Shown here: piece after piece, positions 9,753-58,855 of the stretch | Numbering within the stretch: the first letter of the stretch is position 1 | Layout of the letters: each line of letters opens with the position of its first letter | Source: an uncultured Candidatus Saccharibacteria bacterium | GTDB lineage: Bacteria; Patescibacteriota; Doudnabacteria; UBA920 | Assembly: GCA_964600695.1 (NCBI GenBank) | Contig: CAZRKK010000001.1 | Location: forward strand, 63,043-127,042 | Direction: 5' to 3' | Length of the DNA: 64,000 nt | The notes under the pieces: model-generated | What the model saw: only the letters and a program-made list of their open reading frames with translations | Database searches by the model: none | Told to the model about the DNA's origin: nothing | Position numbers and translations under genes: made by a program

Positions 9753-10564
9753 TCGAATCAAAAAAATTAGTTGTGCCATTAATTATTTTAATTGTTTTAG
9801 TCCTGCTTTATATCGGAAGCATGGTTCTTAAGACTAAAACTGAAACAGAGACCACAACAAACCAAACTAATCAACAAGATACGATAAAAGATGAATCAAA
9901 TGTAAACGAAGAACCGAAGAATGAAACTTTAAAATTTAAATACGAACTGGTGAGCTTCTATAATGGTGGGAATCCAGAACCTAACCAGAGCTATGATGGT
10001 CAAATCATCCAGACTGACATTATGACTGGCAAAAAAACTACAGTCGTAAAAAGCATTAAATCTGCTTATCCAGCGTTAAAAGAAAATCAGTACAAAAGCT
10101 TTATTCAACTTAATCAATCCACTACCAAGCCTTACCTATACTTAGGAATAGTTTACTATGCCGGAGACGCTCCAATTGGTGGAATTGTTCGGTATGATGG
10201 TGATGCTAACAAGTTTACAGAATTAAAGATTAGCAAGAACTTTAATAGTTTCACTAGCACTGCAAGTAAAGAAAGTGCTTATGCTGCTAGTATTTATAAC
10301 ATTAATGATGGTGATGATACACGATCCCTATTTTTGCTAGATTTTGATGAAGATGCTGTTAAAAGTTTAGCAACATTACCAAGCAATGAAACTTTTAATT
10401 TATGTGAGAAAGTTGGTTGTTTGATGCCATCAGCTCCAGAAATAGAATGGTTATCCGGAGATACTTTTAGAATATCTATCTTTGATCCAGAAAAAGTTGT
10501 GAAAGACAAAAATGGTAACGAAACACAAAAACTTATTGAAACTCGCAAATTTATAATTAAATAG
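9749..10564 (+). CDS. hypothetical secreted or membrane-anchored protein
   Basis: 271 aa with an N-terminal TM/signal-anchor (LVVPLIILIVLVLLYIGSMVL), then a Thr/Asn-rich linker and a beta-rich body. It overlaps the rplI stop by 4 nt. Confidence 0.5.
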   Translation: MIESKKLVVPLIILIVLVLLYIGSMVLKTKTETETTTNQTNQQDTIKDESNVNEEPKNETLKFKYELVSFYNGGNPEPNQSYDGQIIQTDIMTGKKTTVVKSIKSAYPALKENQYKSFIQLNQSTTKPYLYLGIVYYAGDAPIGGIVRYDGDANKFTELKISKNFNSFTSTASKESAYAASIYNINDGDDTRSLFLLDFDEDAVKSLATLPSNETFNLCEKVGCLMPSAPEIEWLSGDTFRISIFDPEKVVKDKNGNETQKLIETRKFIIK

Positions 10565-10577
10565 ACTGAAGTAACTC

Positions 10578-12287
10578 ATGTCATACCAACTCAAAACAAG
10601 AAAAGCTAAAAAGTTAAATACAAAATTCATCTTTGTCTCTGGTGGGGTTATCTCTGGAGTAGGAAAAGGTGTGACGACTTCATCTATAGCCGCACTATTA
10701 CAGTCTAGAGGTTACATTGTTGCTCCAGTTAAATGTGACGCCTATTTAAATGTTGATGCAGGGACTATCCGCCCTCAAGAGCACGGCGAAGTTTTCGTCA
10801 CAGACGATGGCATGGAAACCGATCAAGACTTAGGAAACTACGAACGTTTTTTAAATATTGATCTGTCTAAAGCTAACTATGTAACTAATGGTCAATTGTT
10901 TCAAACTATAATTCAGAAGGAAAGAAATTTTGAATATGACGGTGAAGACGTCGAAGTCGCTCTGCATGTTCCAGAAGAAATTATTAATAGATTAGAACAA
11001 GCGGCTCGAGCTCTTAAAGCTGACTTTGTAATTTGTGAAATTGGCGGCACAGTGGGTGAGTATCAAAACATTTTGTTTATAGAAGCTAATCGAATTATGA
11101 AGTACCGTGACGGTCGCGACACTGCCCATGTGCACGTGGGTTATTTACCAACTCCACCAAGTATCGGTGAAATGAAGTCAAAGCCTACACAAAACTCTGT
11201 GAAGCAATTAATTTCTTCCGGTATTCAACCAGACTTCTTAGTAGCGCGAGCCGAAGGACAATTAGATGATCGTCGTAAAGAAACATTAGCTTGGACTACA
11301 AATATTCCTGTTGAGCATATTATTTCTGCACCTAATGTAGATACAATTTACCGAGTACCAAGTAACTTTGATAAAGAAGGATTTACAGACCAACTGCTGG
11401 AGCACTTTGATATGCCTAACAAAAAGCGCGACCTTAGAAAGTGGAACAACTTTGTTACGAAAATAACAAGAGTTCAGAATTCTAATAAAACTGTGAATGT
11501 TGCTGTTGTTGGTAAATACTTTGATACGGGTGATTTTAAATTGTCGGATGTTTATGTTTCGGTAATCGAAGCTTTAAAGCATGGTTGTTGGGCAAATAAT
11601 ACCAATGTAAAATTAGAATGGATATCTAGTAACACCATAGAAAAGCAGGGTGCCAAAAAAATCCTAGCTGGCTATGATGGAATTTGTGTTCCAGGTGGAT
11701 TTGGAAGTCGGGGAGTAGAAGGTATTATTCAAGCTATCGAATATGCCCGAAAACAAAAAGTTCCTTACCTTGGTTTATGTTACGGAATGCAATTAGCAAC
11801 AATCGAATTTGCTCGCAATGTGGTTCGTTTAAAAACCGCTCACACTACTGAGGTTGATCCTAAAACTCGTCATGCGGTAATTCATATTATGCCAGAACAA
11901 GAAAAGTTACTGCTTGCTCGTGAATATGGTGCAACTATGCGCTTGGGTGCATGGGATTGTGTTTTAGAAAAAGGAACCAAAACAGAGCGCGCTTATGCTA
12001 AAGCTGGTTGGGTAAATCCAAATGGTCGTGGTAAAAATAAGAACACTATTTCGGAGCGTCATCGCCACCGTTATGAATTTAATAATGAATACCGTGAACG
12101 TTTAGAAGCTAAAGGTTTAATCGTTTCTGGTACTACTCCAGACGGCCAACTTGTGGAGATTATAGAATTAAAAGACCATCCATTCTTTGTGGGAACCCAA
12201 TTCCACCCAGAATTTAAATCTCGACCCCTAGACCCACATCCCTTGTTTGTGGAATTTGTTCGTGCTATCCTAAAGCAACAAAAATAG
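10578..12287 (+). CDS. pyrG: CTP synthase
   Basis: N-terminal synthetase motif KFIFVSGGVISGVGKG and a C-terminal class-I glutamine amidotransferase domain (GICVPGGFGSRG...LGLCYGMQL). Confidence 0.92.
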   Translation: MSYQLKTRKAKKLNTKFIFVSGGVISGVGKGVTTSSIAALLQSRGYIVAPVKCDAYLNVDAGTIRPQEHGEVFVTDDGMETDQDLGNYERFLNIDLSKANYVTNGQLFQTIIQKERNFEYDGEDVEVALHVPEEIINRLEQAARALKADFVICEIGGTVGEYQNILFIEANRIMKYRDGRDTAHVHVGYLPTPPSIGEMKSKPTQNSVKQLISSGIQPDFLVARAEGQLDDRRKETLAWTTNIPVEHIISAPNVDTIYRVPSNFDKEGFTDQLLEHFDMPNKKRDLRKWNNFVTKITRVQNSNKTVNVAVVGKYFDTGDFKLSDVYVSVIEALKHGCWANNTNVKLEWISSNTIEKQGAKKILAGYDGICVPGGFGSRGVEGIIQAIEYARKQKVPYLGLCYGMQLATIEFARNVVRLKTAHTTEVDPKTRHAVIHIMPEQEKLLLAREYGATMRLGAWDCVLEKGTKTERAYAKAGWVNPNGRGKNKNTISERHRHRYEFNNEYRERLEAKGLIVSGTTPDGQLVEIIELKDHPFFVGTQFHPEFKSRPLDPHPLFVEFVRAILKQQK

Positions 12288-48027: not shown

Positions 48028-48531
48028 ATGTTCGTTCATGAAAATTATGGTATAATAGACTTAACAAATATGGAAACTACTCCAACCCAACAACCTAATC
48101 AAACTATAGTTATTGTTGAGGATGATGTCGCGATGCGCGAAATTGTTGCTCATAAACTCTCTACCAACGGCTTTTCTGTTAAAGAAGCAGAAGATGGCCA
48201 AGAAGGTATAGACCTTATCATCTCTAGCAAACCCAATTTGGTGTTGTTAGATTTGATGCTACCGGAAGTAGATGGTTTTAAAGTTCTAGAAACAATCCGT
48301 AAGAATCCAGACCCGCAAATTGCCAAAACTCCAATTATTATTTTAAGCAACCTCTGGAGCAACAAAGACATCCTCAAGACTAAGGCACTCAATGTGCAAG
48401 CTTATCTTGTGAAGGCCTATTTTACTACCGAGGAGATTATGAAGAAAGTTCAAGAGGTTCTAGCTAATCCAGAAAAATCTGCCGAGCTATCAGTAAGTAA
48501 CCAAGAAGGTTCACCTACTATTAATCAATAA
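48028..48531 (+). CDS. stand-alone response-regulator receiver (CheY-like) protein
   Basis: IVIVEDD...LVLLDLMLPEVDGF...TPIIILSN...K: receiver Asp pocket, phospho-acceptor D, T and K. There is no output domain. The true start may be the internal Met (METTPTQ). Confidence 0.75.
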   Translation: MFVHENYGIIDLTNMETTPTQQPNQTIVIVEDDVAMREIVAHKLSTNGFSVKEAEDGQEGIDLIISSKPNLVLLDLMLPEVDGFKVLETIRKNPDPQIAKTPIIILSNLWSNKDILKTKALNVQAYLVKAYFTTEEIMKKVQEVLANPEKSAELSVSNQEGSPTINQ

Positions 48532-48597: not shown

Positions 48598-48870
48598 TTA
48601 AAGAATAGAATCTTTAGCAGCTTTAGCGACTGTAAATTTAACTACAGTTTTTGCTGGAATAGAAATAGATTCACCAGTTGCAGGGTTACGGCCCATACGA
48701 GCGTCACGGTGCTTCTTCTTAAGCTTACCAAGACCAGGGATAGAAAATTCTCCGCTAGACTTAGTTTCTTTGTAAGCTAATTCGACCATGGCATCCATGA
48801 ATTCGATTACTTCTTTTTTGGTCTTGCCAGTTTTTTCGGCAAGGTGCTGCAAGATTTCTGACTTAGTCAT
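48598..48870 (-). CDS. DNA-binding protein HU/IHF family
   Basis: MTKSEILQHLAEKTGKTKKEVIEFMDAMVE...FSIPGLGKLKKKHRDARMGRNPATGESISIPAKTVVKF. The ATG lies at 48870 with an AAAGGA RBS. The ORF-track start at 48915 is upstream read-through. Confidence 0.85.
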   Translation of the reverse strand: MTKSEILQHLAEKTGKTKKEVIEFMDAMVELAYKETKSSGEFSIPGLGKLKKKHRDARMGRNPATGESISIPAKTVVKFTVAKAAKDSIL

Positions 48871-49003
48871 TCTTGTATTCCTTTTATCTTCGCCCCGCGG
48901 TTGATATAAGACCAACTAGCTTTTCAGCCTGCGCAGTATAAAGATAATTATTTAATTAAATTGCCCGTTCACTGATTCGCTTCAGGGCTCTTATGTATAA
49001 ATT

Positions 49004-49142: not shown

Positions 49143-49748
49143 TTACTCCTCAACCAACCTCGCCTTAACAATATATCTTTTCAAGGCTGTGCCAATTGGG
49201 TAAGAAGTTTGGAGGGTTAAAATGGCCTTGCCGTTAGTTTCTTGGCTCAGTAAATCTGTACGATTCTTTTCGGCCACAAACTTGTCATACACCTTATATG
49301 TATATTTCGTCCCCTCTTTATCAGAAACAATAATAGGAGCACCGATTTCTATTTGAGGAAGTAATGCAAAAACAGTTTTAAAGTTGCCTTTACTAAAAGC
49401 AAAGTCGGAAGAATGACCAAAGATATATGTATTACCTGCCTGCCCTACCTCTGCTGTTCCAGGGAAAAGCACAACTCCATTAACTAAAGCTGTTTGATAA
49501 GCTGTCTCGTTTGCTTCTGTGACAAACTGAATCGGCGCAACTATGTCTAAACTTTCGATAACTAATTGATTTGGTTCGTACTTAATTGGGTTTTCTTTAC
49601 GAAGTTCTTGACGTTGAACCTCTGTAATAAACACCTTACCTAAATGGAACCGAGCTTGCTTAGTAAAGTAAGTGAAGTTTAACAAACCAAACACTAACAA
49701 TCCTAGCACAACAATAATTAATAAATATTTAATAAATTTAATACCCAT
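49143..49748 (-). CDS. sortase-fold protein lacking the catalytic cysteine (TLQTS instead of TLXTC)
   Basis: An N-terminal TM anchor, the conserved His (YIFGHSS) and Arg (RYIVKARL), and a C-terminal ILTLQTSYPIG. The Ser is encoded by TCT (AGA on the plus strand at 49203-49205). The whole protein contains no Cys. Confidence 0.65.
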   Translation of the reverse strand: MGIKFIKYLLIIVVLGLLVFGLLNFTYFTKQARFHLGKVFITEVQRQELRKENPIKYEPNQLVIESLDIVAPIQFVTEANETAYQTALVNGVVLFPGTAEVGQAGNTYIFGHSSDFAFSKGNFKTVFALLPQIEIGAPIIVSDKEGTKYTYKVYDKFVAEKNRTDLLSQETNGKAILTLQTSYPIGTALKRYIVKARLVEE

Positions 49749-49813: not shown

Positions 49814-52800
49814 TTAGTTGTTTTGTTTAGCTATGTATTTTGGTAAAAGAATAATACCAAGAGTAGCTAGCATAACCATTACCACATAAGCAGGAGTTCC
49901 TGTTCGAGGTAACTCTGTAGTAGCACCAAGTACAGTTCCTGTTGTTGGGGTACTTGGGATATTTGTACTATCACCAAGGACTCGTCCAACTGTAGGGTTT
50001 GGTACTTCTGGAGCTGGCCCGCCGCCAGTGCTTCCACCACCGCCAGTGCTTCCACCACCGCCGCCTCGATAGATATTCCCAAAGTCTAGACCAGAAGCAT
50101 CACCAGAATAATTTGGATAAACATCAACTGATGCATTGGCTGTTTTAAACATAAAGTCTGTCCAAGAAGAATCTTTATTAGATTCTAGAGTAACTGCTTC
50201 GCAAGGCCAAATTGCACCACCAATAGCAATGTTGTATTCAGTCAAAACAGGTTCTGTCTCTGCCCAATTAGATTGTAAGACTTCTCTAACTGAGTAACAA
50301 CCAGCTACTAAACCAGTAAATTGATAATTCCCGTTGCTATCAGATATAGTTGAGGTTTCTTCGTTATTTAGAGTATTACTTCCATCCTGGTCAAGGTACA
50401 CAACCCAACCTTCAAGCTCATCTTCTACTTCACCATCATGATCACCATTATTGCTGTTATTATCATGATAAACTGTACCGCTTATCTTGAATCCACCATT
50501 ACCACCACCATCTTCATCATCACGGTTATAGAAGTTTTGACCAGTTTCAATTGAATCAGTAACTAATACTTGATTAGCGCCGTTGTCTGCTGGGGTCATT
50601 TGTGTCCAACCTTCTTGACCAACTTCGCGAACGAAATATGTTCCTGTAGGTAAATCTGCAAATGAATAATTACCATCTTTGTCGGTTTTATCATATGGCT
50701 CATTATCATCAAGTTCACCATTTTTATTTAGGTCCAGATAAATTACCCATCCACCTAATGTGATTGGTGTTAACTCTTCATTGCCAGACTGATATTTATA
50801 CTTTGTTCCTGAGATTCCATTTCCACAAGTTGGGAGTTCTGGCTCATCATTAATAATCTGGGTAAAGATACTAAATAATGATTTACGAACTTTTTCCTCT
50901 TGTCGTTGTACACAAACTTGATGGTTACCAAAATCATTATTGATACTATCTGCGTTAGCAGGGACTACATTTAGACTACCTTCTGGAGCACTTTGTTGCC
51001 ATCCAGTTTGCATACCTTCAACAATAGCAAGATTACCGGTTAGATCAGTCACATCAAAACTATAATTACCGTTGGAATCTGTTGTTGTTGAAGATAAGAC
51101 TTCGAAAATTTCTACATCTAGAGTTCCAGTATTATTACCTGGAGCAATATCATTAATTGCGAAATTAACAGCAGCCCCAGTACCAGTTAATGTTTTCCAA
51201 TAAATATGAGAGCTAGTGTATGGACCCCAGTAAGAAGAGTTGCCATCTATTTGCAGGTCCAATAAGTCTGGACCATATATTTCATAATTCTGAACTAAGT
51301 CAGTCCAATCAGGGTTTAAATTTCGAGATGAATATTGAGCATCGGATAGAATTCCATCGTTAGCGTCATAAGTTCCGGAAGCTTTTACTAAATAGGTAGC
51401 GCCATTGGTTAAAGGCAAGCTATCAACACCTGTAACACTAGTTGAATCAACTTCATACTCTGCTACTTTTTTAGTTAAGTAGATAGTCCAATCTTGAATT
51501 CCATTTTCCCCTTGTTCTCTTTCACCGTCACCATCAAGATCATTCCACTTTGTTCCTGTAGCATGATAAGTAGGCTCTCCTTGGCCAGTTTCATCACCAC
51601 AGTAATTAAAGTCTAGGTTGTAAATTAATCCGGTTGGATTGTTGGTTGGTTGGTATGCCCAGTTCTTTACAGCAAATTTTAGAACATGTGTACCTGGTGT
51701 TAGTGCTAATGGAGAGCTATCAGAAACTACGGCATAATCATTGCTAAATCCTACCTGAACTCCATCTAAGAAAGCAGTTACTTCATTGTCAGCGGTAAAA
51801 TGTAAGATTGCAGGAGAAATGCTTGTTGCCCCGGCAGGAATAGTAAAGGTATGGCTATACAGTCTCCATGTATCAATAGAACCATCCCCACCTGCGCCTG
51901 GTGGATTTGTTGGTTGAGCTGCGCTATTGCTGACCCATACCCCGGACCCCTCTGTTATATCTGGATCATTTTGCGGCCCATCCCATGCACCTGGATGACC
52001 AGTAGGACCAGCTAATACAGCTGGAGCATCAATACCTAATGGGTAATTAGCTTCATCACTTAAATCACTCGGTGCTGTATTTTCCTTTAGACCTTCAAAC
52101 TTAGTAAACATACCACTAGCGATAGCTGGGTCTTGCTCCACACAAGGAGTTAGTGACCCAATATTATACGCGATACAGTAGATATGCTCTGGTTGATTAT
52201 TACCTAAGCTAATATACTCTAGATTATCACCATTTAAAGCGTCGTTAAAACATCGAATTGCGGCAAATTCGTAACCATATTTTTCTTGTTCACTCACCCA
52301 CATTTGCCCGTTAACAATTGCTGACTGCATGGCTGGGTTAAGCGCAGAATCTTCTCCAGAAATAGGAGTTACGAATTCACCATCTTCGGTAGCACCTAGA
52401 ACTTGTGCATCATCACTTGTAAAACTACTCTCATTGGAAACGTTAAACTTCCACCCATCGGCACGAACACAATTAGAGTCCTTGCCAGGGATTTCACTTG
52501 GATTTACCAGACCATTCACTAAAGGTGATGGTAAGAACATCCCGTTATTATAGTTATTAAAGTAAACATAATTACCATTGGTTTCATCAGCAGAGCTTCC
52601 AGACTCGTTCCCTGCAACATCACCATATTCTTCACAGACGACTTTGATTAAATGAAGTTTAGGAATCGGTCGATCACAACCATTTTCACTACATTGGTTC
52701 ACGAGTGTAAATGATTCATTTTGAGTATCAACCATTTTAGTTTCATTCTTTCCAGAAATATTGGTCCAGCCATCCTTCATGATTTCATCTAGTTTATATG

Positions 52801-55702
52801 AGCCAAATGGAACATTTTCGATTGTCACACATCCATCCTGACCTGTGGTGCCAGAATAAACAGGATAAATATCCACAGTCATGGTTCCATTGTTATCACC
52901 AAACCAATCAGGATACTGAGTATTAGTTAATGTATCACCGTCAAAGACGCGGAAATTGACAGTCGAGCCAGTTCCAGAAGTTACTAAACTATATGCATGA
53001 GAAGTAGCATATGGACCCCAAGAAACAAATTGACCATCAACTTGCATTTCTAGTAATCCATTCGGGTAACCACCTTGTGGTCCATCAAGAACCGTAGTCC
53101 AACCATCTGGTGTAGTAAAGCGTGGATCTACAGTTTCAAAACCCCGATTTTGCCATGTACCACTAGCGACAATTAAATAATTCTGACCACTAGTTAAGGT
53201 GTTTGTAGAATTAAAACCTGTAGATGAATTTGAATTTACAGAAACTGTTTCTAGTTTAGGACCCTTTAACATGACTTGCCAGTTAGATAGTGGATTTTGA
53301 TTACTATCCAATTTACAAATTTTTACAGTAGAAACACAGCCTGTGTTACATCGATTGACCAAAGTGAAGGTTTCTTTTGGTTGATCAACAACAGCGGAAG
53401 TGTTTTTCCCTGAGTCGTTGCTCCAACCATCTTTCATAAGTTCATCCAATTTGTATGTGCCGTAATCGATATTTTCGAAAGTCACACAACCGTCTTCACC
53501 AGTAGTACCTTTAATGACAGGATAAATATCCACGGTTAAAGTACCGCTATTATCAGAATAGTTGTTGTCTAAAATTCGGAAACCAATTGAACCTGGTACT
53601 GCTAATGTTTTGAATGCAGCATAATTATGAGAAGCGTTAAAGCTCATTGCCCAATTAAAATTGGCATCATCTACTTGAATACCCAAGTATCCTTCATAGC
53701 CAACTAAATCTAGGTTACGAACCCAAGGCAAATCTGCACCAGAGTAAAAACTTGGGTGAATACCAGCATCACTAGCAATTCTCTTAGAGAAAGCTGCGTC
53801 ACTAATATCGCCTTCACTGCCTGGTCGATAAACATAGGTTCCACTTGCTTCTAATACATAATCACCTGCTGGCAAACTATCAGAAAGAGTGCTTAAACCA
53901 GTAGTAGAGTCAACAGTCACGGAGTCTACCATGTCGCCTTTTAAGAATACACTCCATCCCGATAAAGGATTTTGATGATTGTCTAATTTACAAATTGTAA
54001 CATCAGATTCACAATCTTCTTTTACACTTACGTCATCGACAAAACCACCGAGTGTGTTTCCTTCACCAAGATCGGTAATACTTAAACGAGTTACTCCACT
54101 TGTCGCAGTGAATGAATAAGTATGTTGAGTCCAAACTGTGTTGCTGTTTGATGTGCCGTTTTCTGTAATAGTACCTAAAACGGTTGCACCCATTTTTACC
54201 TGAGTGATATTTTCAGACAAGCCCTGTCCTGGACGAGGTGATGTCCAAAGGCTTACTGTATAGTTGCTTCCAACTTTAGTAATTAAATCTTGAAAAAGAC
54301 TAACTGAAGCATCCTCACTACCACCGCCTGATGGGCCTTCCCAATCTGAATCTAACTCTGTGTACTGAGACCCACTCTTTGGATTCCAACCATTTACACC
54401 TCGGTGAAGCTCGGCTTTAGCTATTGCAGGTGCTCCACTTGGATTAACCCAATCAACACTCCATGCTAAACCGGCAGTACCAGAATCTCGAATATCCCAC
54501 GAATTCCCTATTGCAGGAGATTCAAAGCCACCGTTCGCCACCATTTCGGTACCACAAGGCACTGGATTTTTTAACTTATTTACAACTTTATGTGTACAAG
54601 TATTATTTGGTGAACATACAGGAGACACTGTACCGACAGTACTATCGTCTACTTGCCAACCTGCCGGAAGACCTGTTTCTGTAACAGTAATGTCTTCATC
54701 TGTAAAACTATTAATAGTTTCGTCACAAACTAAAGCAGATTGTTGATTATACTTACATACTATTGTATCTTGTCCTGCGTTTACTGTAATTGTAATATCA
54801 TCTTTATTATCAGGAGCATCAATAACCTGTCCATTTGCATCCTGCCATTCTTTAGAGATAGTAACCGTGGTTGGACATCGCAATACTGCTGAATCATCAT
54901 CTTGAGCAACTTTAAGATCTTGCCCAATTAAACATGGATCCGGGGGTGTAACTGGAATATTACAACCTTTGCCTTGTTGATCTTTTGTATTGTATATAGT
55001 TTGCCCGTCAGTCCAGTTATACCCAGCAAACGAACCACCAGAATATGTGAACGGTGGAATAATATCTCCCCAATCTTCTGTAATTCCAGAGAACCATACA
55101 GGACCTGTGTGAGTAGCATGACCATTTGGTCCCTTCATAATACTATTTACACTAACTTCTAACTCTACATAAGGATTTGTGCCATTATTTTCGTGACAGA
55201 TAACTACCTTTTTGGTCTCATCATTTTCACAAAGTCCATTAACAGAAAGGTAATCTTTGTCATGATCCTCATGATCATCTTCATAGTCTTCCTGTTTCAT
55301 TAACTTTCTTTCATACTTACCATTTTTTTCGTGACAAACAATAACCATTTTACTATCACCTGTACCCTGACCAGGACACTTCTTGTTTTCACCATCAATC
55401 ACAAAATCTGAATCATGAGCATCATGAACACCTACCTCACTCTTCTTCATTTGAAGATTATCCCAAGTTGCGCCGTTATAGTGACAAACTGTGACTTTCT
55501 TGTCGTTATCATTATCCCTGGCAACAGCAGTAGTAGGAATACTAAAACTTGAAAGCACTAACGAAAAAACCGCAACTACCGCTAAACCACGAGCTGTAAA
55601 AGCTTTGATTCTACGGATATTTGCAGTTTTAGGAAAACCTCTCAAAATAGCCACATTTGCCCATAATTGAGATATATTTTTGAAAAACTTGTTTTCTGTC
55701 AT
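49814..55702 (-). CDS. giant (1962 aa) LPxTG-anchored surface protein with internal tandem repeats
   Basis: An N-terminal signal region, then three tandem V-x-V/I-C-H-x-x-NG repeats. Three approximately 200-aa repeats follow (CKLD..QNPLS..., each ending GTTG.DGCVT.EN...KLDE.MKDGW). SdrD/Cna-B-like Asp-rich repeats (DGEREQGENGIQDWTIYL; DDNEPYDKTDKDGNYSF) come next. A Gly-rich tract (GGGGGSTGGGGSTGGG) is present. The C-terminus ends LPRTG + hydrophobic TM + KQNN. Confidence 0.8.
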   Translation of the reverse strand: MTENKFFKNISQLWANVAILRGFPKTANIRRIKAFTARGLAVVAVFSLVLSSFSIPTTAVARDNDNDKKVTVCHYNGATWDNLQMKKSEVGVHDAHDSDFVIDGENKKCPGQGTGDSKMVIVCHEKNGKYERKLMKQEDYEDDHEDHDKDYLSVNGLCENDETKKVVICHENNGTNPYVELEVSVNSIMKGPNGHATHTGPVWFSGITEDWGDIIPPFTYSGGSFAGYNWTDGQTIYNTKDQQGKGCNIPVTPPDPCLIGQDLKVAQDDDSAVLRCPTTVTISKEWQDANGQVIDAPDNKDDITITVNAGQDTIVCKYNQQSALVCDETINSFTDEDITVTETGLPAGWQVDDSTVGTVSPVCSPNNTCTHKVVNKLKNPVPCGTEMVANGGFESPAIGNSWDIRDSGTAGLAWSVDWVNPSGAPAIAKAELHRGVNGWNPKSGSQYTELDSDWEGPSGGGSEDASVSLFQDLITKVGSNYTVSLWTSPRPGQGLSENITQVKMGATVLGTITENGTSNSNTVWTQHTYSFTATSGVTRLSITDLGEGNTLGGFVDDVSVKEDCESDVTICKLDNHQNPLSGWSVFLKGDMVDSVTVDSTTGLSTLSDSLPAGDYVLEASGTYVYRPGSEGDISDAAFSKRIASDAGIHPSFYSGADLPWVRNLDLVGYEGYLGIQVDDANFNWAMSFNASHNYAAFKTLAVPGSIGFRILDNNYSDNSGTLTVDIYPVIKGTTGEDGCVTFENIDYGTYKLDELMKDGWSNDSGKNTSAVVDQPKETFTLVNRCNTGCVSTVKICKLDSNQNPLSNWQVMLKGPKLETVSVNSNSSTGFNSTNTLTSGQNYLIVASGTWQNRGFETVDPRFTTPDGWTTVLDGPQGGYPNGLLEMQVDGQFVSWGPYATSHAYSLVTSGTGSTVNFRVFDGDTLTNTQYPDWFGDNNGTMTVDIYPVYSGTTGQDGCVTIENVPFGSYKLDEIMKDGWTNISGKNETKMVDTQNESFTLVNQCSENGCDRPIPKLHLIKVVCEEYGDVAGNESGSSADETNGNYVYFNNYNNGMFLPSPLVNGLVNPSEIPGKDSNCVRADGWKFNVSNESSFTSDDAQVLGATEDGEFVTPISGEDSALNPAMQSAIVNGQMWVSEQEKYGYEFAAIRCFNDALNGDNLEYISLGNNQPEHIYCIAYNIGSLTPCVEQDPAIASGMFTKFEGLKENTAPSDLSDEANYPLGIDAPAVLAGPTGHPGAWDGPQNDPDITEGSGVWVSNSAAQPTNPPGAGGDGSIDTWRLYSHTFTIPAGATSISPAILHFTADNEVTAFLDGVQVGFSNDYAVVSDSSPLALTPGTHVLKFAVKNWAYQPTNNPTGLIYNLDFNYCGDETGQGEPTYHATGTKWNDLDGDGEREQGENGIQDWTIYLTKKVAEYEVDSTSVTGVDSLPLTNGATYLVKASGTYDANDGILSDAQYSSRNLNPDWTDLVQNYEIYGPDLLDLQIDGNSSYWGPYTSSHIYWKTLTGTGAAVNFAINDIAPGNNTGTLDVEIFEVLSSTTTDSNGNYSFDVTDLTGNLAIVEGMQTGWQQSAPEGSLNVVPANADSINNDFGNHQVCVQRQEEKVRKSLFSIFTQIINDEPELPTCGNGISGTKYKYQSGNEELTPITLGGWVIYLDLNKNGELDDNEPYDKTDKDGNYSFADLPTGTYFVREVGQEGWTQMTPADNGANQVLVTDSIETGQNFYNRDDEDGGGNGGFKISGTVYHDNNSNNGDHDGEVEDELEGWVVYLDQDGSNTLNNEETSTISDSNGNYQFTGLVAGCYSVREVLQSNWAETEPVLTEYNIAIGGAIWPCEAVTLESNKDSSWTDFMFKTANASVDVYPNYSGDASGLDFGNIYRGGGGGSTGGGGSTGGGPAPEVPNPTVGRVLGDSTNIPSTPTTGTVLGATTELPRTGTPAYVVMVMLATLGIILLPKYIAKQNN

Positions 55703-55756: not shown

Positions 55757-55785
55757 AATATAACTAAAACATCACTTCCTGTCAA
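55757..55785 (-). promoter_or_regulatory. sigma70-like promoter TTGACA-N17-TATATT for the giant LPxTG gene (minus strand)
   Basis: On the minus strand, TTGACA (plus-strand 55780-55785) is followed by a 17-nt spacer and TATATT (plus-strand 55757-55762), about 50 nt upstream of the ATG at 55702. Confidence 0.45.
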
Positions 55786-55869: not shown

Positions 55870-55896
55870 AAGGCCTAGACTAAATGTCTAGACCTT
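55870..55896 (-). terminator. hairpin GGCCTAGAC-TAAAT-GTCTAGACC with T-run on the minus strand, downstream of ORF 55916-57019
   Basis: 9-bp stem with one mismatch. The plus-strand AAAAAA upstream gives a U-tract on the minus strand. Confidence 0.5.
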
Positions 55897-55915: not shown

Positions 55916-57019
55916 TTACTGCTTCTTAGGGTTGATTTTAAGAATCAAACCCAGCACCATCAGGTCCGATGGTGAAGTTTTTACTTTACTGGAGTGCTCA
56001 AGCCTAGCTAGTTTTTTCTCCAGAGAAAGTTCAATGTTAATCAAAACACTTTTAACCATATTGTTTTCTCTGGTCAAAGCCATAGGTTTACGATCTACAA
56101 CCAAAAATTGATTGTCGATTATATATGGACTTAATTCACCAGCGACCTTACTCAATGATAAGAAAATATTTCTATTTGTATTAACACCAGCTTTCGCTAT
56201 CCCAGCACCAGACAATGTCCCGATTATTCGGCAACCCTTGGTTTCGTAAACTCGTTTAGCAATCCTGCCCTTCTGAACATTGAGCCTTTCGAAACCGATA
56301 ATTACATAATGACTGGGATTAACATACCGATCTATAAAATCAACCAACTTTCCCCATTGATACAGATCGAGAATACTTCCTAACTCTCGGAATATACCCG
56401 TAGGTGCATTACGAACCAAATCACCAGCTAAATAACTAAGCTCATTTGGTCTTAGCCGGCCGGGTTTTTTGGACGATCCAGATAATCTGATACTAAGGAG
56501 GTCCAAAGATTTAACTCCGTACAAGTTTGAAGCAAAAACATCATTATTGGTTGATCGATTATATATCTCGACACCAGCAGAAGCTATGTACTTCATCAAA
56601 TTGGTATTGATCTCAGCCAGCTTCTCCACTCCATGACCGCGAAACTCGGAAGATTTTTGTAGGCGTTCAACCTCAGCACGTAAGCCTTGATTGATACCTT
56701 TTAACTTCTGCACCTCTTCCGAATCGGCCCTCTTTTGAATATTGCGTTCCTGACGGAACTCATTTAGAGCTTCTTTGAATTGCTCCACGTCCTTAATAGC
56801 CGTGTGCGCAGCATTAAAGTGTTGAGAAATATCTTTCCTTTCGGTTCGATCTTCGTGCTTTATTGCGGCCAAAGTCTGAGCCGTTCTTAATGCCAACTTA
56901 TGATATTCATCCTCGGTTAGCTTAAGTTTTAAGATGGAGTAATCCCACCCAATTACCTCTAAAGGATTTTTGGATACAATTACTCCGTCCGAATTTTGCA
57001 ACGCTGTTACAGTGGTCAT
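55916..57019 (-). CDS. hypothetical protein (N-terminal coiled-coil + C-terminal globular domain), second gene of orphan two-gene operon
   Basis: 367-aa ORF with no recognisable catalytic motif. Its start overlaps the upstream ORF's stop by 4 nt. Confidence 0.5.
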   Translation of the reverse strand: MTTVTALQNSDGVIVSKNPLEVIGWDYSILKLKLTEDEYHKLALRTAQTLAAIKHEDRTERKDISQHFNAAHTAIKDVEQFKEALNEFRQERNIQKRADSEEVQKLKGINQGLRAEVERLQKSSEFRGHGVEKLAEINTNLMKYIASAGVEIYNRSTNNDVFASNLYGVKSLDLLSIRLSGSSKKPGRLRPNELSYLAGDLVRNAPTGIFRELGSILDLYQWGKLVDFIDRYVNPSHYVIIGFERLNVQKGRIAKRVYETKGCRIIGTLSGAGIAKAGVNTNRNIFLSLSKVAGELSPYIIDNQFLVVDRKPMALTRENNMVKSVLINIELSLEKKLARLEHSSKVKTSPSDLMVLGLILKINPKKQ

Positions 57020-57681
57020 AAATTATACCTCTCGCGCAGATCTTCCCAAGTGATGTTTTGATACATCTCCTTGCGCTCTGTAAAGTCCATTTCCCGGATG
57101 CGTTCGACATAATCCGTCCCTAGATAGGAAATCGAAACTCCTCTATCCATGTCTGCCCAAGCACAACGCACTAAGGCTAACACTGCTTGACGCAGGACAT
57201 TTCTATCAATCGCAGCATCGGGCATGAAGAACAATTCTCGAATATCTTCCAAGTACCCGTAAAGATCCGAGATCAAAGATTCAGCTGAATCGCCAAACAC
57301 AATAACCAAAGCCACGGCTGTGGGTTTATTTATCTCCAAGCCGTCAAACTCTCGTGCCGTCGGGCCGTTGAGTTCCAAAGCGATAACCAATTCGTTCCGA
57401 ATCTTATCGGCTTTGTTGGCGACCAAATTTTCGCCCACACTTACCCATTCATCGTCGCCGTCTCGTAACCGGTTTGGACACGAAATGACTTCCAACATCT
57501 TGGCACAATCCTGAACGTTAAGCTTGTAGTCAACCGCCAAGCCAAAATAGATATTTTGAGCGATTGCATCAGGCAAATACTTCTCCAGGTTTTTTTCGAT
57601 CGTTGCAGGCTTAATACCTAAACCATAACCAATTTTGATGATGGCCAAATGCCGCTCATCACTAACAATTAATTTTTTCAT
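57016..57681 (-). CDS. hypothetical acidic cytoplasmic protein, first gene of orphan two-gene operon
   Basis: The ATG lies at 57681, preceded by a GAGGGAAAT RBS. The protein is 222 aa with no recognisable motif. The ORF-track start at 57750 is likely too early. Confidence 0.5.
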   Translation of the reverse strand: MKKLIVSDERHLAIIKIGYGLGIKPATIEKNLEKYLPDAIAQNIYFGLAVDYKLNVQDCAKMLEVISCPNRLRDGDDEWVSVGENLVANKADKIRNELVIALELNGPTAREFDGLEINKPTAVALVIVFGDSAESLISDLYGYLEDIRELFFMPDAAIDRNVLRQAVLALVRCAWADMDRGVSISYLGTDYVERIREMDFTERKEMYQNITWEDLRERYNL

Positions 57682-57771
57682 ATTTCCCTCTTCTTCAGTT
57701 GTAATAGAACAAAGCAAAGAATAACACGTTTTCTGTTTTCTGTCAACCAAATATCCATATAAACATTGGTC

Positions 57772-58423: not shown

Positions 58424-58855
58424 TTATTTAATCTCTTTATCAATCTTATAAGTGTGCTTATCGCCCTTAATTAACTTTAAGCGAGAAACTAACTTTTTAC
58501 GAAACTTAATGTCATCAATCATAGAAAATACTGCGCGTTGTAAAACCTTCTCTGGGTTACGAATATTTTCGTCACGAAGAGTTTTGGTTTTTAAACCACC
58601 TAAGTAACCAGAGTGATGGTAGTACTTCTTTTGTTCAACTTTGCGACCAGTGAATTTAAGCTTATCAACATTAATAGCTACAACAAAGTCACCCATATCC
58701 ATATGAGGAGTGAAGTTACGCTTGTGCTTACCACGGAGCAAGTTAGCAATTTGAGTTGCTACACGACCCATTGGCAAACCACTAGCATCAATTTGATGCC
58801 AAGTGCGAGTTACTTCGCTAACTTTTGGGAGTGAAATTTTTTGATTCTTTAACAT
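58424..58855 (-). CDS. rplM: 50S ribosomal protein L13
   Basis: ...TWHQIDASGLPMGRVATQIANLLRGKHKRNFTPHMDMGDFVVAINVDKLKFTG... is the L13 signature. Confidence 0.9.
   Translation of the reverse strand: MLKNQKISLPKVSEVTRTWHQIDASGLPMGRVATQIANLLRGKHKRNFTPHMDMGDFVVAINVDKLKFTGRKVEQKKYYHHSGYLGGLKTKTLRDENIRNPEKVLQRAVFSMIDDIKFRKKLVSRLKLIKGDKHTYKIDKEIK

Follow-up and report, generated by a model that had tools for sequence, protein, structure and literature searches.

Wall-anchored LPXTG adhesins of Gram-positive bacteria, such as SdrD and Cna of S. aureus and RrgA, bear a signal peptide and an LPXTG-type sorting signal, are encoded next to a sortase-family gene and have a stalk of SdrD_B, SpaA or CnaB domains that carry a Lys/Glu/Asn pattern, and in RrgA, for example, binding domains sit on the stalk domains or are nested in them. 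The 1962-aa protein described here shares each of these features, but differs from the Gram-positive adhesins in its lectin-type jelly rolls, in a tip of small Cys-His (CH) modules, in the Ser-type sortase encoded beside it and in its origin in a bacterium of the CPR/Patescibacteria type. Parts of the locus also recall the PA-IL/LecA lectins (P. aeruginosa LecA, Photorhabdus PllA and the N-domain of Enterobacter EclA), the class D/E-like sortases (B. anthracis SrtD, 2ln7; C. perfringens SrtD, 4d70) and a lectin of Pleurotus ostreatus with two jelly-roll repeats. Genes for sortases and for DsbA/MdbA-like oxidoreductases are common in CPR genomes (PMC6744442). We consider it likely that the giant gene encodes a multivalent, wall-anchored adhesin of lectin type, probably dependent on Ca2+, in a CPR/Patescibacteria-type bacterium, and we set out below the evidence for this reading together with the alternatives.

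A giant gene conserved in sequence and position

49814..55702, minus strand: giant ORF, 1962 aa (ORF listing)
49143..49748, minus strand: sortase-family gene, 201 aa, 66 nt downstream of the giant gene
55757..55785, minus strand: promoter-like site TTGACA-17-TATATT, about 55 nt upstream of the giant-gene ATG
55870..55896, minus strand: terminator-like hairpin with an 11-bp stem and a T run, after the ORF upstream of the giant gene

The 64-kb window, by which we mean the whole stretch of DNA analysed, contains a single uninterrupted reading frame at the position and of the length reported in an earlier note on this DNA. The promoter-like site, identified by consensus agreement alone, matches at 11 of 12 positions, the best in a 10-kb scan; neither Rfam nor tRNA scanning of the window gave a match. 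We found 37 homologues of the giant protein, the closest being 61% identical over 1726 aa, and the gene order ribosomal S9 – giant gene – sortase – HU – response regulator is kept in six related genomes. The protein contains 32 Cys residues, paired at module borders, and Pfam and NCBIfam searches found no catalytic domain in any segment. The giant ORF is a real, conserved surface protein, and its relatives point to an ultra-small CPR/Patescibacteria-type bacterium as the source.

The earlier note had warned that internal DNA repeats make the locus prone to assembly collapse or expansion, a concern not borne out by self-comparison, which revealed no repeats relevant to assembly. The best self-match within the ORF was 73% over 139 nt, direct repeats extended over at most 77 nt at 70% identity, and the sole tandem repeat (18 nt × 2.3 copies) lies in the Gly tract. 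Assembly collapse was ruled out because this DNA self-similarity is weak. That the ORF is chimeric, or was collapsed or expanded across repeats, is hardly credible: its great length and its protein-level repeats would suit such an origin, but the DNA similarity between repeats is at most 73–77% over no more than 139 nt, the frame is intact, the flanking genes are syntenic in the six genomes, and the three-unit layout recurs in a homologue from a separate assembly, collinear over 1726 aa.

Export and wall-sorting signals

55520..55702, minus strand: N-terminal signal region, aa 1-61 (read from the translation)
49817..49912, minus strand: cell-wall sorting signal, LPRTG at aa 1931-1935 (from the translation)

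Read by eye, the N-terminus has the make-up of a secretion signal, with a long basic n-region, a hydrophobic core AVVAVFSLVLSSF similar to that in homologues, and TAVA followed by RDND, with a putative cleavage site; GTG (codon 17) and TTG (codon 20) offer alternative in-frame starts. At the C-terminus, LPRTG is followed by a hydrophobic segment, TPAYVVMVMLATLGIILLP, and a positive tail, KYIAKQNN, with just two Lys, an arrangement already recognised in the earlier note; the LPRTG-bearing peptide proposed for the neighbouring sortase ends ...ATTELPRTGTPA. Homologues carry LPRTG or LPVTG at the equivalent position, and most full-length homologues terminate in this way. Together with the sortase-family gene downstream, these signals are in keeping with the earlier description of a sortase-anchored surface protein, and the predicted outcome would be cleavage between Thr and Gly and covalent linkage to peptidoglycan.

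A sortase homologue with Ser in place of the catalytic Cys

The neighbouring gene product belongs to the sortase family (Pfam Sortase, PF04203, 75.1 bits against a gathering cut-off of 26.6). It shares the triad His and Arg with the class D/E-like sortases, and its LTLQTSYP...KRYIV aligns with LTLTTCYP...DRYII of SrtD 2ln7; like them, it adjoins a substrate gene. The TLxTC motif, however, reads TLQTS, with Ser182 aligned to the catalytic Cys of 2ln7 and 4d70, and the associated sorting motif is LPRTG. The protein has no Cys at all, a feature overlooked in the earlier note, and neither have its six syntenic orthologues. To our knowledge, all characterised sortases use a Cys nucleophile. As the partner sortase lacks the catalytic Cys, covalent anchoring by the known mechanism is not to be assumed.

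The giant protein might therefore be displayed without being covalently anchored by its neighbour, the Ser-type homologue being a pseudoenzyme or having another job, with tethering by the C-terminal membrane helix or processing by a Cys-sortase encoded elsewhere. The lack of Cys throughout the orthologues and the Cys chemistry of characterised sortases favour this alternative, as does the restriction of the analysis to 64 kb of the genome, yet we regard it as unlikely given how the Ser is conserved. Ser occupies the catalytic position in four close relatives, in the six syntenic orthologues and in 77 of 80 metagenomic relatives, some of them only about 39% identical, and is encoded by all four TCN and both AGY codons, which indicates selection for Ser itself. 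His112 (FGH112SSD) and Arg191 (KR191YIV) are invariant in seven orthologues. The gene also stays directly behind LPRTG substrates: of 41 distinct metagenomic loci of the clade, 19 have an LPRTG or LPVTG signal whose end lies upstream at a median distance of 57 nt. Such conservation would be unexpected of a dead enzyme. We also considered the Asp of GHSSD as a compensating member of a Ser-His-Asp triad, and rejected this because Cys-type relatives share GHSSD and the Asp thus does not co-vary with Ser.

A sortase-polymerised pilus, with the giant protein as its subunit, is a far-fetched alternative. CnaB/SpaA domains and structural matches to pilins recall pili, and in one relative the giant gene and the sortase are separated by a second, small gene, which encodes a SpaA domain. 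Against this, the giant protein has no YPK pilin motif, its 1962-aa size and domain make-up suit a stand-alone adhesin, and the window contains exactly one LPXTG-type signal and exactly one sortase homologue. Among NCBIfam sortase class models the best match was class D SrtD (45.9 bits against 140), not class C (27.1 against 160), and every class-specific score was below its cut-off. Without a YPK motif and without a class C match, the pilin reading was rejected.

A stalk of CnaB-, SpaA- and SdrD_B-type domains

54548..54865, minus strand: CnaB-like stalk domain, aa 280-385, with a K/E/N pattern (ISKEW, VTETG, VVNK) read by eye
52148..52660, minus strand: conserved domain S6, aa 1015-1185, present in 18 homologues
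50213..50824, minus strand: pair of SdrD_B / SpaA stalk domains, one at aa 1627-1722 and one at aa 1734-1830, whose loops are Asp-rich and of Ca2+ type
50018..50065, minus strand: Gly-rich tract, aa 1880-1895, holding the 18-nt tandem repeat (TRF)

The Asp-rich Cna-B/SdrD-like units and the Gly-rich tract described previously were both recovered. SdrD_B (PF17210) scored 54.4 bits against a Pfam cut-off of 29.7, and SpaA, a prealbumin-like domain, 69.2 bits against 23.1 with a matching fold. The domain at aa 280-385, conserved in 22 homologues, gave a weak Cna_B match under the Pfam cut-off (E 0.026). S6 had no sequence match in Pfam, NCBIfam or PDB, but K11, E129 and N171 are invariant in its alignment A8 (LIKVV, VSEQE, IAYNI), and it probably represents a CnaB-like stalk domain that contains an insertion. 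A Lys/Glu/Asn pattern is likewise preserved in the R-type units described below (K9 in 34/34, E191 in 34/34 and N220 in 33/34), and several stalk domains are, as judged from residue conservation, candidates for self-forming isopeptide bonds.

Although the SdrD_B repeat is shared with the B repeats of MSCRAMM/Sdr proteins, membership of that family was rejected: the full-length models scored far below their cut-offs (NF012181 SdrD, 25.8 against 2500; NF000535 SdrC, 25.3 against 1700), and the giant protein has neither the MSCRAMM A region nor Ser-Asp repeats, there being no SD dipeptide repeat in the translation.

Lectin-type modules nested in and placed along the stalk

53336..54013, minus strand: repeat R1, aa 564-789, a SpaA/CnaB domain split by a predicted LecA-fold lectin insert
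53522-53926, minus strand: predicted LecA-fold insert of R1, about aa 593-727
52670..53335, minus strand: repeat R2, aa 790-1011, of R1-like build with the insert at about aa 819-950 (HMM match; Pfam SpaA)
50903..51550, minus strand: repeat R3, aa 1385-1600, an SdrD_B-type stalk domain with a putative LecA-type insert at about aa 1412-1534 (HMM match)
54017..54541, minus strand: jelly roll like choice-of-anchor C / DUF642, aa 388-562
51578..51985, minus strand: sugar-binding-type jelly roll S7, aa about 1240-1375 (profile A7 against PDB)

Three tandem repeats of about 200 aa and identical architecture had been proposed for the core of the protein. There are indeed three units, of about 220 aa, but only R1 and R2 are in tandem, R3 being located some 375 aa beyond R2. 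R2 is 47% and R3 28% identical to R1, and the first 45 aa of R3 match Pfam SdrD_B. In each unit, the stalk domain is predicted to be interrupted by an insert with the beta-sandwich fold of LecA. This likeness is suggested by structure prediction for the repeat unit and by a short hhalign match that covers only LecA 91-117 (probability 19.6%, E 0.0012), in which D149, D154, N155 and G157 of the unit fall on D100, N107, N108 and G110 of LecA. Across 34 units, D149 and N155 never vary and D or N occupies position 154 in 33, and the NDIAPGNNTG motif of R3 is similar to a LecA motif. Asp100, Asn107 and Asn108 of LecA thus have counterparts in the unit by column mapping; in LecA they belong, together with Tyr36, His50, Gln53 and Thr104, to the Ca2+/galactose site, and the mapped residues form hydrogen bonds to galactose next to the Ca2+ ion (PMC9300185), and the inserts may bind sugar and Ca2+ in a comparable way. 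The relationship is distant: identity to PA-IL/LecA lectins is 15-18%, the unit profile matches EclA at E 0.063 only, and the Pfam PA-IL model (PF07828) gave no match at E≤5 on any of R1-R3. Whereas LecA is a free, tetrameric lectin of 121 aa, the inserts are nested in stalk domains of a giant protein predicted to be anchored.

Two further jelly rolls of sugar-binding type lie along the stalk. The segment at aa 388-562 matches choice-of-anchor C (TIGR04362) over model positions 2-157 of 157 (E 9e-12; 45.5 bits against a cut-off of 120) and DUF642 (E 9.5e-5; score 22.7 against 27), and by sequence comparison is a relative of these families rather than a member by curated rule. Against PDB, the S7 profile A7 matched the 'Lectin' entries 6t0q/6t1d/6kbj (E 5.5e-8), with weaker matches to beta-glucuronidase (3e-3) and to rhamnosidases (about 2-3e-2), whose sugar-binding jelly rolls we take to be CBM67-type. 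A profile of aa ~1275-1370 matched both jelly-roll repeats of the 6t0q/6t1d/6kbj chains; 6KBJ is cited in a paper on the Pleurotus ostreatus lectin. Compared with the two repeats of that lectin, S7 occurs just once and forms part of a bacterial surface protein.

CH modules at the N-terminus

55373..55504, minus strand: CH module 1, short form, aa 67-110 (C73/H74 ... H..H ... D ... C109)
55229..55351, minus strand: CH module 2, short form, degenerate, aa 118-158 (C123/H124 ... HEDH ... D ... C158)
54935..55213, minus strand: CH module 3, long form, aa 164-256 (C169/H170 ... C247)

Of the three CH repeats of about 45 aa reported previously, all three motifs (at C73/H74, C123/H124 and C169/H170) are present, but the third belongs to a long form of about 90 aa with the pattern ICH..NPY..GHxxHxGPVW..WGDIIPPF..G.NW..GQ.IY...C247. 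A short-form profile built solely from other proteins matched the giant protein at exactly three sites, aa 68-102 (11.5 bits), 120-158 (7.8 bits) and 164-200 (28.9 bits); the module 1 score was reached by 0/2000 composition-preserving shuffles and the module 2 score by 5/2000. Module 3 scored 93.7 bits against the CH family profile, and the protein carries the C-H ... H-x-x-H ... D-I-I-P ... C pattern of the family. This family is large (~3,500 clusters at 50% identity) and without annotation. It was reached by an alignment query and exhaustive profile search, a single-sequence word-indexed search with the module having retrieved only four proteins.

As the earlier note had supposed, the CH module is not a named domain: it has no relative in Pfam, NCBIfam or PDB, and structure prediction gave a confident model for which no structural neighbour was found. 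A consensus of the module had no tblastn match in plasmids. The Cys, His, HxxH, Asp and closing Cys are near-invariant in the family. On this pattern of conservation, metal binding by the His, HxxH and Asp residues is plausible, and the two Cys are more suggestive of a disulfide. Thioester domains (TEDs) have an invariant Cys and an invariant Gln in a TQxA[IV]W-like motif. We rejected this identity for the CH module because the Gln is not conserved: Cys10 is present in 339/339 modules, but the Gln of 'GQAIW' in only 250/339, being otherwise R, E, K, I or M. Nor did the predicted CH structure match TED chains.

Proposed function and significance

The proposal that this protein is a candidate adhesin is now better grounded, through the predicted LecA-fold inserts and the two further sugar-binding-type jelly rolls. 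As an adhesin, the giant protein would leave the cell by Sec export directed by its N-terminal signal and be retained in the membrane by its C-terminal LPRTG signal until the sortase-family enzyme encoded 66 nt downstream cuts that signal and joins the protein to the wall. The mature protein would form a long stalk of CnaB/SpaA/SdrD_B beta-sandwich domains presenting five sugar-binding-type modules, namely the choice-of-anchor C/DUF642-like jelly roll, the three LecA-fold inserts and the mushroom-lectin-like S7. At its far tip would stand the three small CH modules, each probably closed by a disulfide and bearing a His/HxxH/Asp cluster. The protein may have a role in attachment to a host cell, for an episymbiont as the earlier note suggested, and might, as that note also proposed, dominate the cell surface.

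Alternatively, the protein could be a structural component of the envelope or matrix, such as an S-layer-like coat or biofilm scaffold, with lectin modules that bind the cell's own wall glycans. A conserved core-genome place just after the ribosomal-protein operon in six genomes would suit a housekeeping surface component, and lectin-type domains do not reveal their ligand. We nevertheless judge this decidedly improbable, since the architecture resembles Gram-positive adhesins and pilus tip proteins, not S-layer proteins, and since close orthologues share 61% identity in the body, from residue 255 onward, but have entirely different N-terminal heads. A variable head on a conserved body is more typical of adhesin tips that face variable targets.

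The adhesin reading can tentatively be extended to a display system found across the CPR, although we hold this wider version to be somewhat doubtful as a whole. With this locus as its type example, it would comprise a large clade of sortase-fold enzymes acting as serine transpeptidases on LPRTG signals through an acyl-ester, a core-genome giant lectin adhesin with interchangeable heads as their main substrate, and a CH head that represents a new metal-binding fold in thousands of uncharacterised surface proteins. Searches of one literature library on CPR LPXTG proteins, natural Ser-sortases and CH motif strings found nothing relevant, although such absence is no proof of novelty.

Little is known of the means by which CPR/Patescibacteria cells grip other cells beyond type IV pili, and this locus provides a concrete, conserved candidate, a multivalent lectin carried on a rigid stalk, in which predicted sugar-binding sites can be recognised. 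The CH module, as a large family without annotation or structural relative, is a clear target for structure determination and metal analysis. If active, the Ser-nucleophile sortase clade would mean that sortases could no longer be defined, as they are in textbooks, as cysteine transpeptidases, and its members may serve as oxidation-insensitive ligation enzymes.

Conservation and genomic context of the giant gene

The giant gene is real and conserved. Its coordinates in the earlier note agreed exactly with the ORF listing (49814..55702, minus strand), and its G+C content of approximately 0.38-0.40 is typical of the window. Searching 5.8 billion proteins returned 37 homologues, all unnamed or annotated as 'hypothetical' and the best at 61% identity, and most of the full-length members end in LPRTG or LPVTG followed by a hydrophobic tail. 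P0001 (1981 aa), the nearest homologue, aligns collinearly over 1726 aa at 61% identity and likewise contains the three large units. The order giant gene, sortase, HU and response regulator is kept in all six relatives with readable contigs, one of which is a complete 943-kb genome. As far as each locus extends, the ribosomal/RNA polymerase operon S13-S11-S4-RpoA-L17-L13-S9 lies upstream, the exception being L007, a relative's locus that has different upstream genes and the same four-gene run. Species-representative genomes carrying relatives are labelled Zambryskiibacteriota, Parcubacteria or Patescibacteria, making a CPR/Patescibacteria bacterium the very probable source of the window. The window shares the relatives' order:

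58424-58855, L13
57853-58443, S9
57016-57750 and 55916-57019, minus strand, two overlapping unannotated ORFs of 244 and 367 aa
49814-55702, minus strand, giant ORF with ATG start, 1962 aa
49143-49748, minus strand, sortase gene, 201 aa, 66 nt downstream of the giant gene
48598-48915, HU
48028-48531, response regulator

The two ORFs between S9 and the giant gene matched no Pfam or NCBIfam family and break an S9-giant gene adjacency found in four of the six relatives; locus L010 has a 243-aa unannotated ORF at the same place. Upstream of the giant gene we noted a terminator-like hairpin followed by the sigma-70-like sequence that matches best in this region, both being consensus matches only. 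The closest relative's locus (L006) differs from the window in having an additional 354-aa SpaA/SdrD_B-domain gene (10075-11139, plus strand) between giant gene and sortase, which may encode another substrate. Scans of the 64 kb found neither a tRNA gene nor an Rfam family at gathering threshold. Beyond approximately 12 kb the minus strand carries nearly all large ORFs, with cumulative GC skew declining steadily.

The earlier note had cautioned that internal repeats make the locus prone to assembly collapse or expansion. This risk does not hold, because the repeats are weak and diverged at the DNA level: the top self-match of the giant gene is 73% over 139 nt, and direct repeats do not exceed 77 nt (70%). 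As DNA, the large units are old and diverged. The sole tandem repeat, a perfect 18 nt × 2.3 at 50022-50062 inside the Gly tract (GGGGST units), is the only place in the gene where slippage could alter length.

Cys/His modules and exchangeable N-terminal heads

The N-terminus carries three copies of a small Cys/His repeat unit (the CH module), which occurs in long (~90 aa) and short (~45 aa) forms. The earlier note had described three repeats of approximately 45 aa. All three are real, since a short-form profile (34 modules from other proteins) matched the giant protein at just three sites, aa 68-102, 120-158 and 164-200, and for the first two only 0 and 5 shuffles out of 2000, respectively, reached the score; however, the third (aa 164-256) is a long-form module and the first two are degenerate short ones. 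Features read from the translation, including the Gly-rich tract and LPRTG C-terminus that had been reported previously, are as follows:

C73/H74, C123/H124 and C169/H170, CH motifs
aa 1880-1895, Gly-rich tract
aa 1931, LPRTG sorting signal, then a hydrophobic stretch and a KYIAKQNN tail

The long form (K-V-x-I-C-H-A-x-x-S-x-x-N-P-Y ... G-H-x-x-H-x-G-P-V-W ... W-G-D-I-I-P-P-F ... G-x-N-W-x-x-x-G-Q-A-I-x-N-x-C) was also present in several other surface proteins from the first search, usually directly after the signal peptide. In an exhaustive search of 1.84 billion cluster representatives, a profile of 16 long-form modules detected 3537 proteins at E<=1e-3, of which 1997 passed E<=1e-10; many of the proteins contain 2-6 copies. 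The short form, found in tandem arrays, has the same C-H, H-x-x-H, D-I-I-P and closing Cys.

Conservation among 339 distinct long-form CH modules
Cys10, 339 of 339
His11, 338 of 339
His36, 335 of 339
His39, 322 of 339
Asp54, 339 of 339
Later Cys, 314 of 314 untruncated modules

The module had no Pfam model, NCBIfam model or PDB sequence match, in agreement with its earlier description as not a named domain, and in 81 member proteins Pfam found stalk domains only (SpaA, SdrD_B, DUF11) and no enzyme. We infer that the module is small and extracellular, that a Cys-Cys disulfide closes it and that its His/HxxH/Asp cluster probably binds metal; it would lie at the wall-distal end of the molecule. 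A thioester domain was considered and fails because no more than 250 of 339 modules have the candidate Gln.

The window protein and its closest relative are homologous only from residue 255 onwards, and other relatives have quite different heads; the tip therefore appears to be exchangeable on a conserved body, suggesting head swapping on a conserved stalk. When window aa 62-254 were compared with the N-terminal ~300 aa of homologues P0001-P0022, the unrelated heads on the common body included CH modules, a 'TSAGEN.PGWMFNRD' domain, an 'APNWNATGNYV' domain and others. Most family members (P0001, P0002, P0004, P0005, P0011, P0012, P0018 and P0019) also begin with a conserved cytoplasmic motif before the hydrophobic core of the signal, …AAQARYRMRF.THAVPD…K…FNR.WLGK, which is reminiscent of the distinctive signal-peptide motifs found in some surface proteins of Gram-positive bacteria and is not present in the window protein.

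Stalk domains with probable nested lectins

Tile-wise self-BLAST and alignment delimited three large units of ~220 aa (R1, aa 564-789; R2, aa 790-1011; R3, aa 1385-1600), the second and third having 47% and 28% identity to the first. Three units had been proposed and three exist, but only the first two are in tandem. In R1 and R2 Pfam recognised no more than a SpaA/prealbumin domain in two halves, split by ~135 unassigned residues, and R3 opens with an SdrD_B match. Profile-to-sequence comparison by hhalign placed the unit segment 'FRILD--NNYSDNSGTLTVDIY' on the P. aeruginosa galactose lectin LecA (E 0.0012, probability 19.6%; sequence identical to PDB 1l7l), such that D149, D154, N155 and G157 map to LecA D100, N107, N108 and G110. 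Galactose bound by LecA forms hydrogen bonds with His50, Gln53, Asp100, Thr104, Asn107 and Asn108 and coordinates a Ca2+ ion (PMC9300185). All 34 units compared have D149 and N155; at position 154, 29 have D and four have N. In the stalk part K9 (34/34), E191 (34/34) and N220 (33/34) are kept, which is the pattern seen with the self-forming Lys-Asn isopeptide bonds of CnaB domains. Each large repeat is therefore a stalk domain carrying a nested lectin of predicted fold, probably Ca2+-dependent and putatively sugar-binding.

Elsewhere in the body, aa 280-385 gave a weak Cna_B match, and aa 388-562 matched choice-of-anchor C (TIGR04362) along the full model (E 9e-12, yet under the NCBI cut-off) and, weakly, DUF642. 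The segment at aa 1015-1185 had no library match; because K, E and N are invariant in a strand-like pattern (LIKVV, VSEQE, IAYNI), we read it as a putative further stalk domain with an insertion. A family profile of aa ~1275-1370 matched both jelly-roll repeats of the 'Lectin' chains 6t0q, 6t1d and 6kbj (E 5.5e-8), the last cited in work on Pleurotus ostreatus lectin, and more weakly the sugar-binding domains of beta-glucuronidase and rhamnosidases. The Cna-B/SdrD-like units of the earlier note correspond to two SdrD_B/SpaA domains over Pfam cut-offs at aa 1627-1830. About 18-30 homologues have these pieces in the same order, with one to three lectin units each, and no catalytic domain was found anywhere in the giant protein. 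A Candidatus Zambryskiibacteriota MAG locus (L002, 3014-6562, plus strand) encodes a 1182-aa protein that combines a choice-of-anchor-C-like domain, a jelly roll like that at aa ~1240-1375 and one lectin-bearing unit with a C-terminus resembling a peptidoglycan-binding domain in place of LPXTG; neighbouring ORFs have PEP-CTERM-like tails.

A partner sortase with serine at the catalytic position

The downstream gene product is a sortase homologue by Pfam (75.1 bits, cut-off 26.6), while all class-specific NCBIfam models scored under cut-off, class D being the best. It contains no cysteine at all. Alignment of 'ILTLQTSYP...KRYIVKA' with 'ILTLTTCYP...DRYIIEA' of B. anthracis SrtD (2ln7) places Ser182 at the catalytic Cys, with His112 and Arg191 retained. 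The Ser is not an error. It is shared by four relatives with >90% identity from independent assemblies and by every one of the six syntenic orthologues (49-63% identity), which likewise lack Cys altogether. Metagenomes were scanned with two seed motifs that lie outside the active site, giving 333 confirmed relatives, and the Ser recurs in 77 of the best 80 (LQTSYP, LQTSWP or LQASYP). All Ser codon types are used (TCT 19, TCC 17, TCG 16, TCA 11, AGC 2 and AGT 1 among 66 distinct sequences); synonymous sites are scrambled and the amino acid is fixed. Only three of the best 80, the most distant at 36-38% identity, have Cys (SLMTCWP).

The association with substrates is strong as well. The window has one sortase homologue and one LPXTG-type signal, and among 41 distinct loci whose upstream sequence was long enough, 19 have an LPRTG (17) or LPVTG (2) signal on the same strand, ending at a median distance of 57 nt upstream of the sortase gene. 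The most economical reading is a dedicated sortase-substrate pair with Ser as nucleophile; judged from sequence alone, the homologue may instead be inactive. No description of natural Ser-type sortases was found in the literature searched, an absence that is not proof. Sortases are common in CPR (PMC6744442), so a sortase substrate there is no surprise in itself.

Relationship to known adhesins

In its CnaB/SdrD_B stalk with carried or nested binding modules, the giant protein is alike in kind to Gram-positive sortase-dependent adhesins. MSCRAMM/Sdr membership was rejected on NCBIfam scores far under cut-off and the lack of an A region and SD repeats, and a pilin on the lack of a YPK motif and a class C sortase. 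Unlike described adhesins, it has predicted LecA-fold lectins nested in stalk domains, an unannotated CH head module, a Ser-type partner sortase and a gene in a fixed core-genome position in CPR-type genomes. We consider it likely that the giant protein is a sortase-dependent adhesin, for which attachment to a host cell would be a plausible role.
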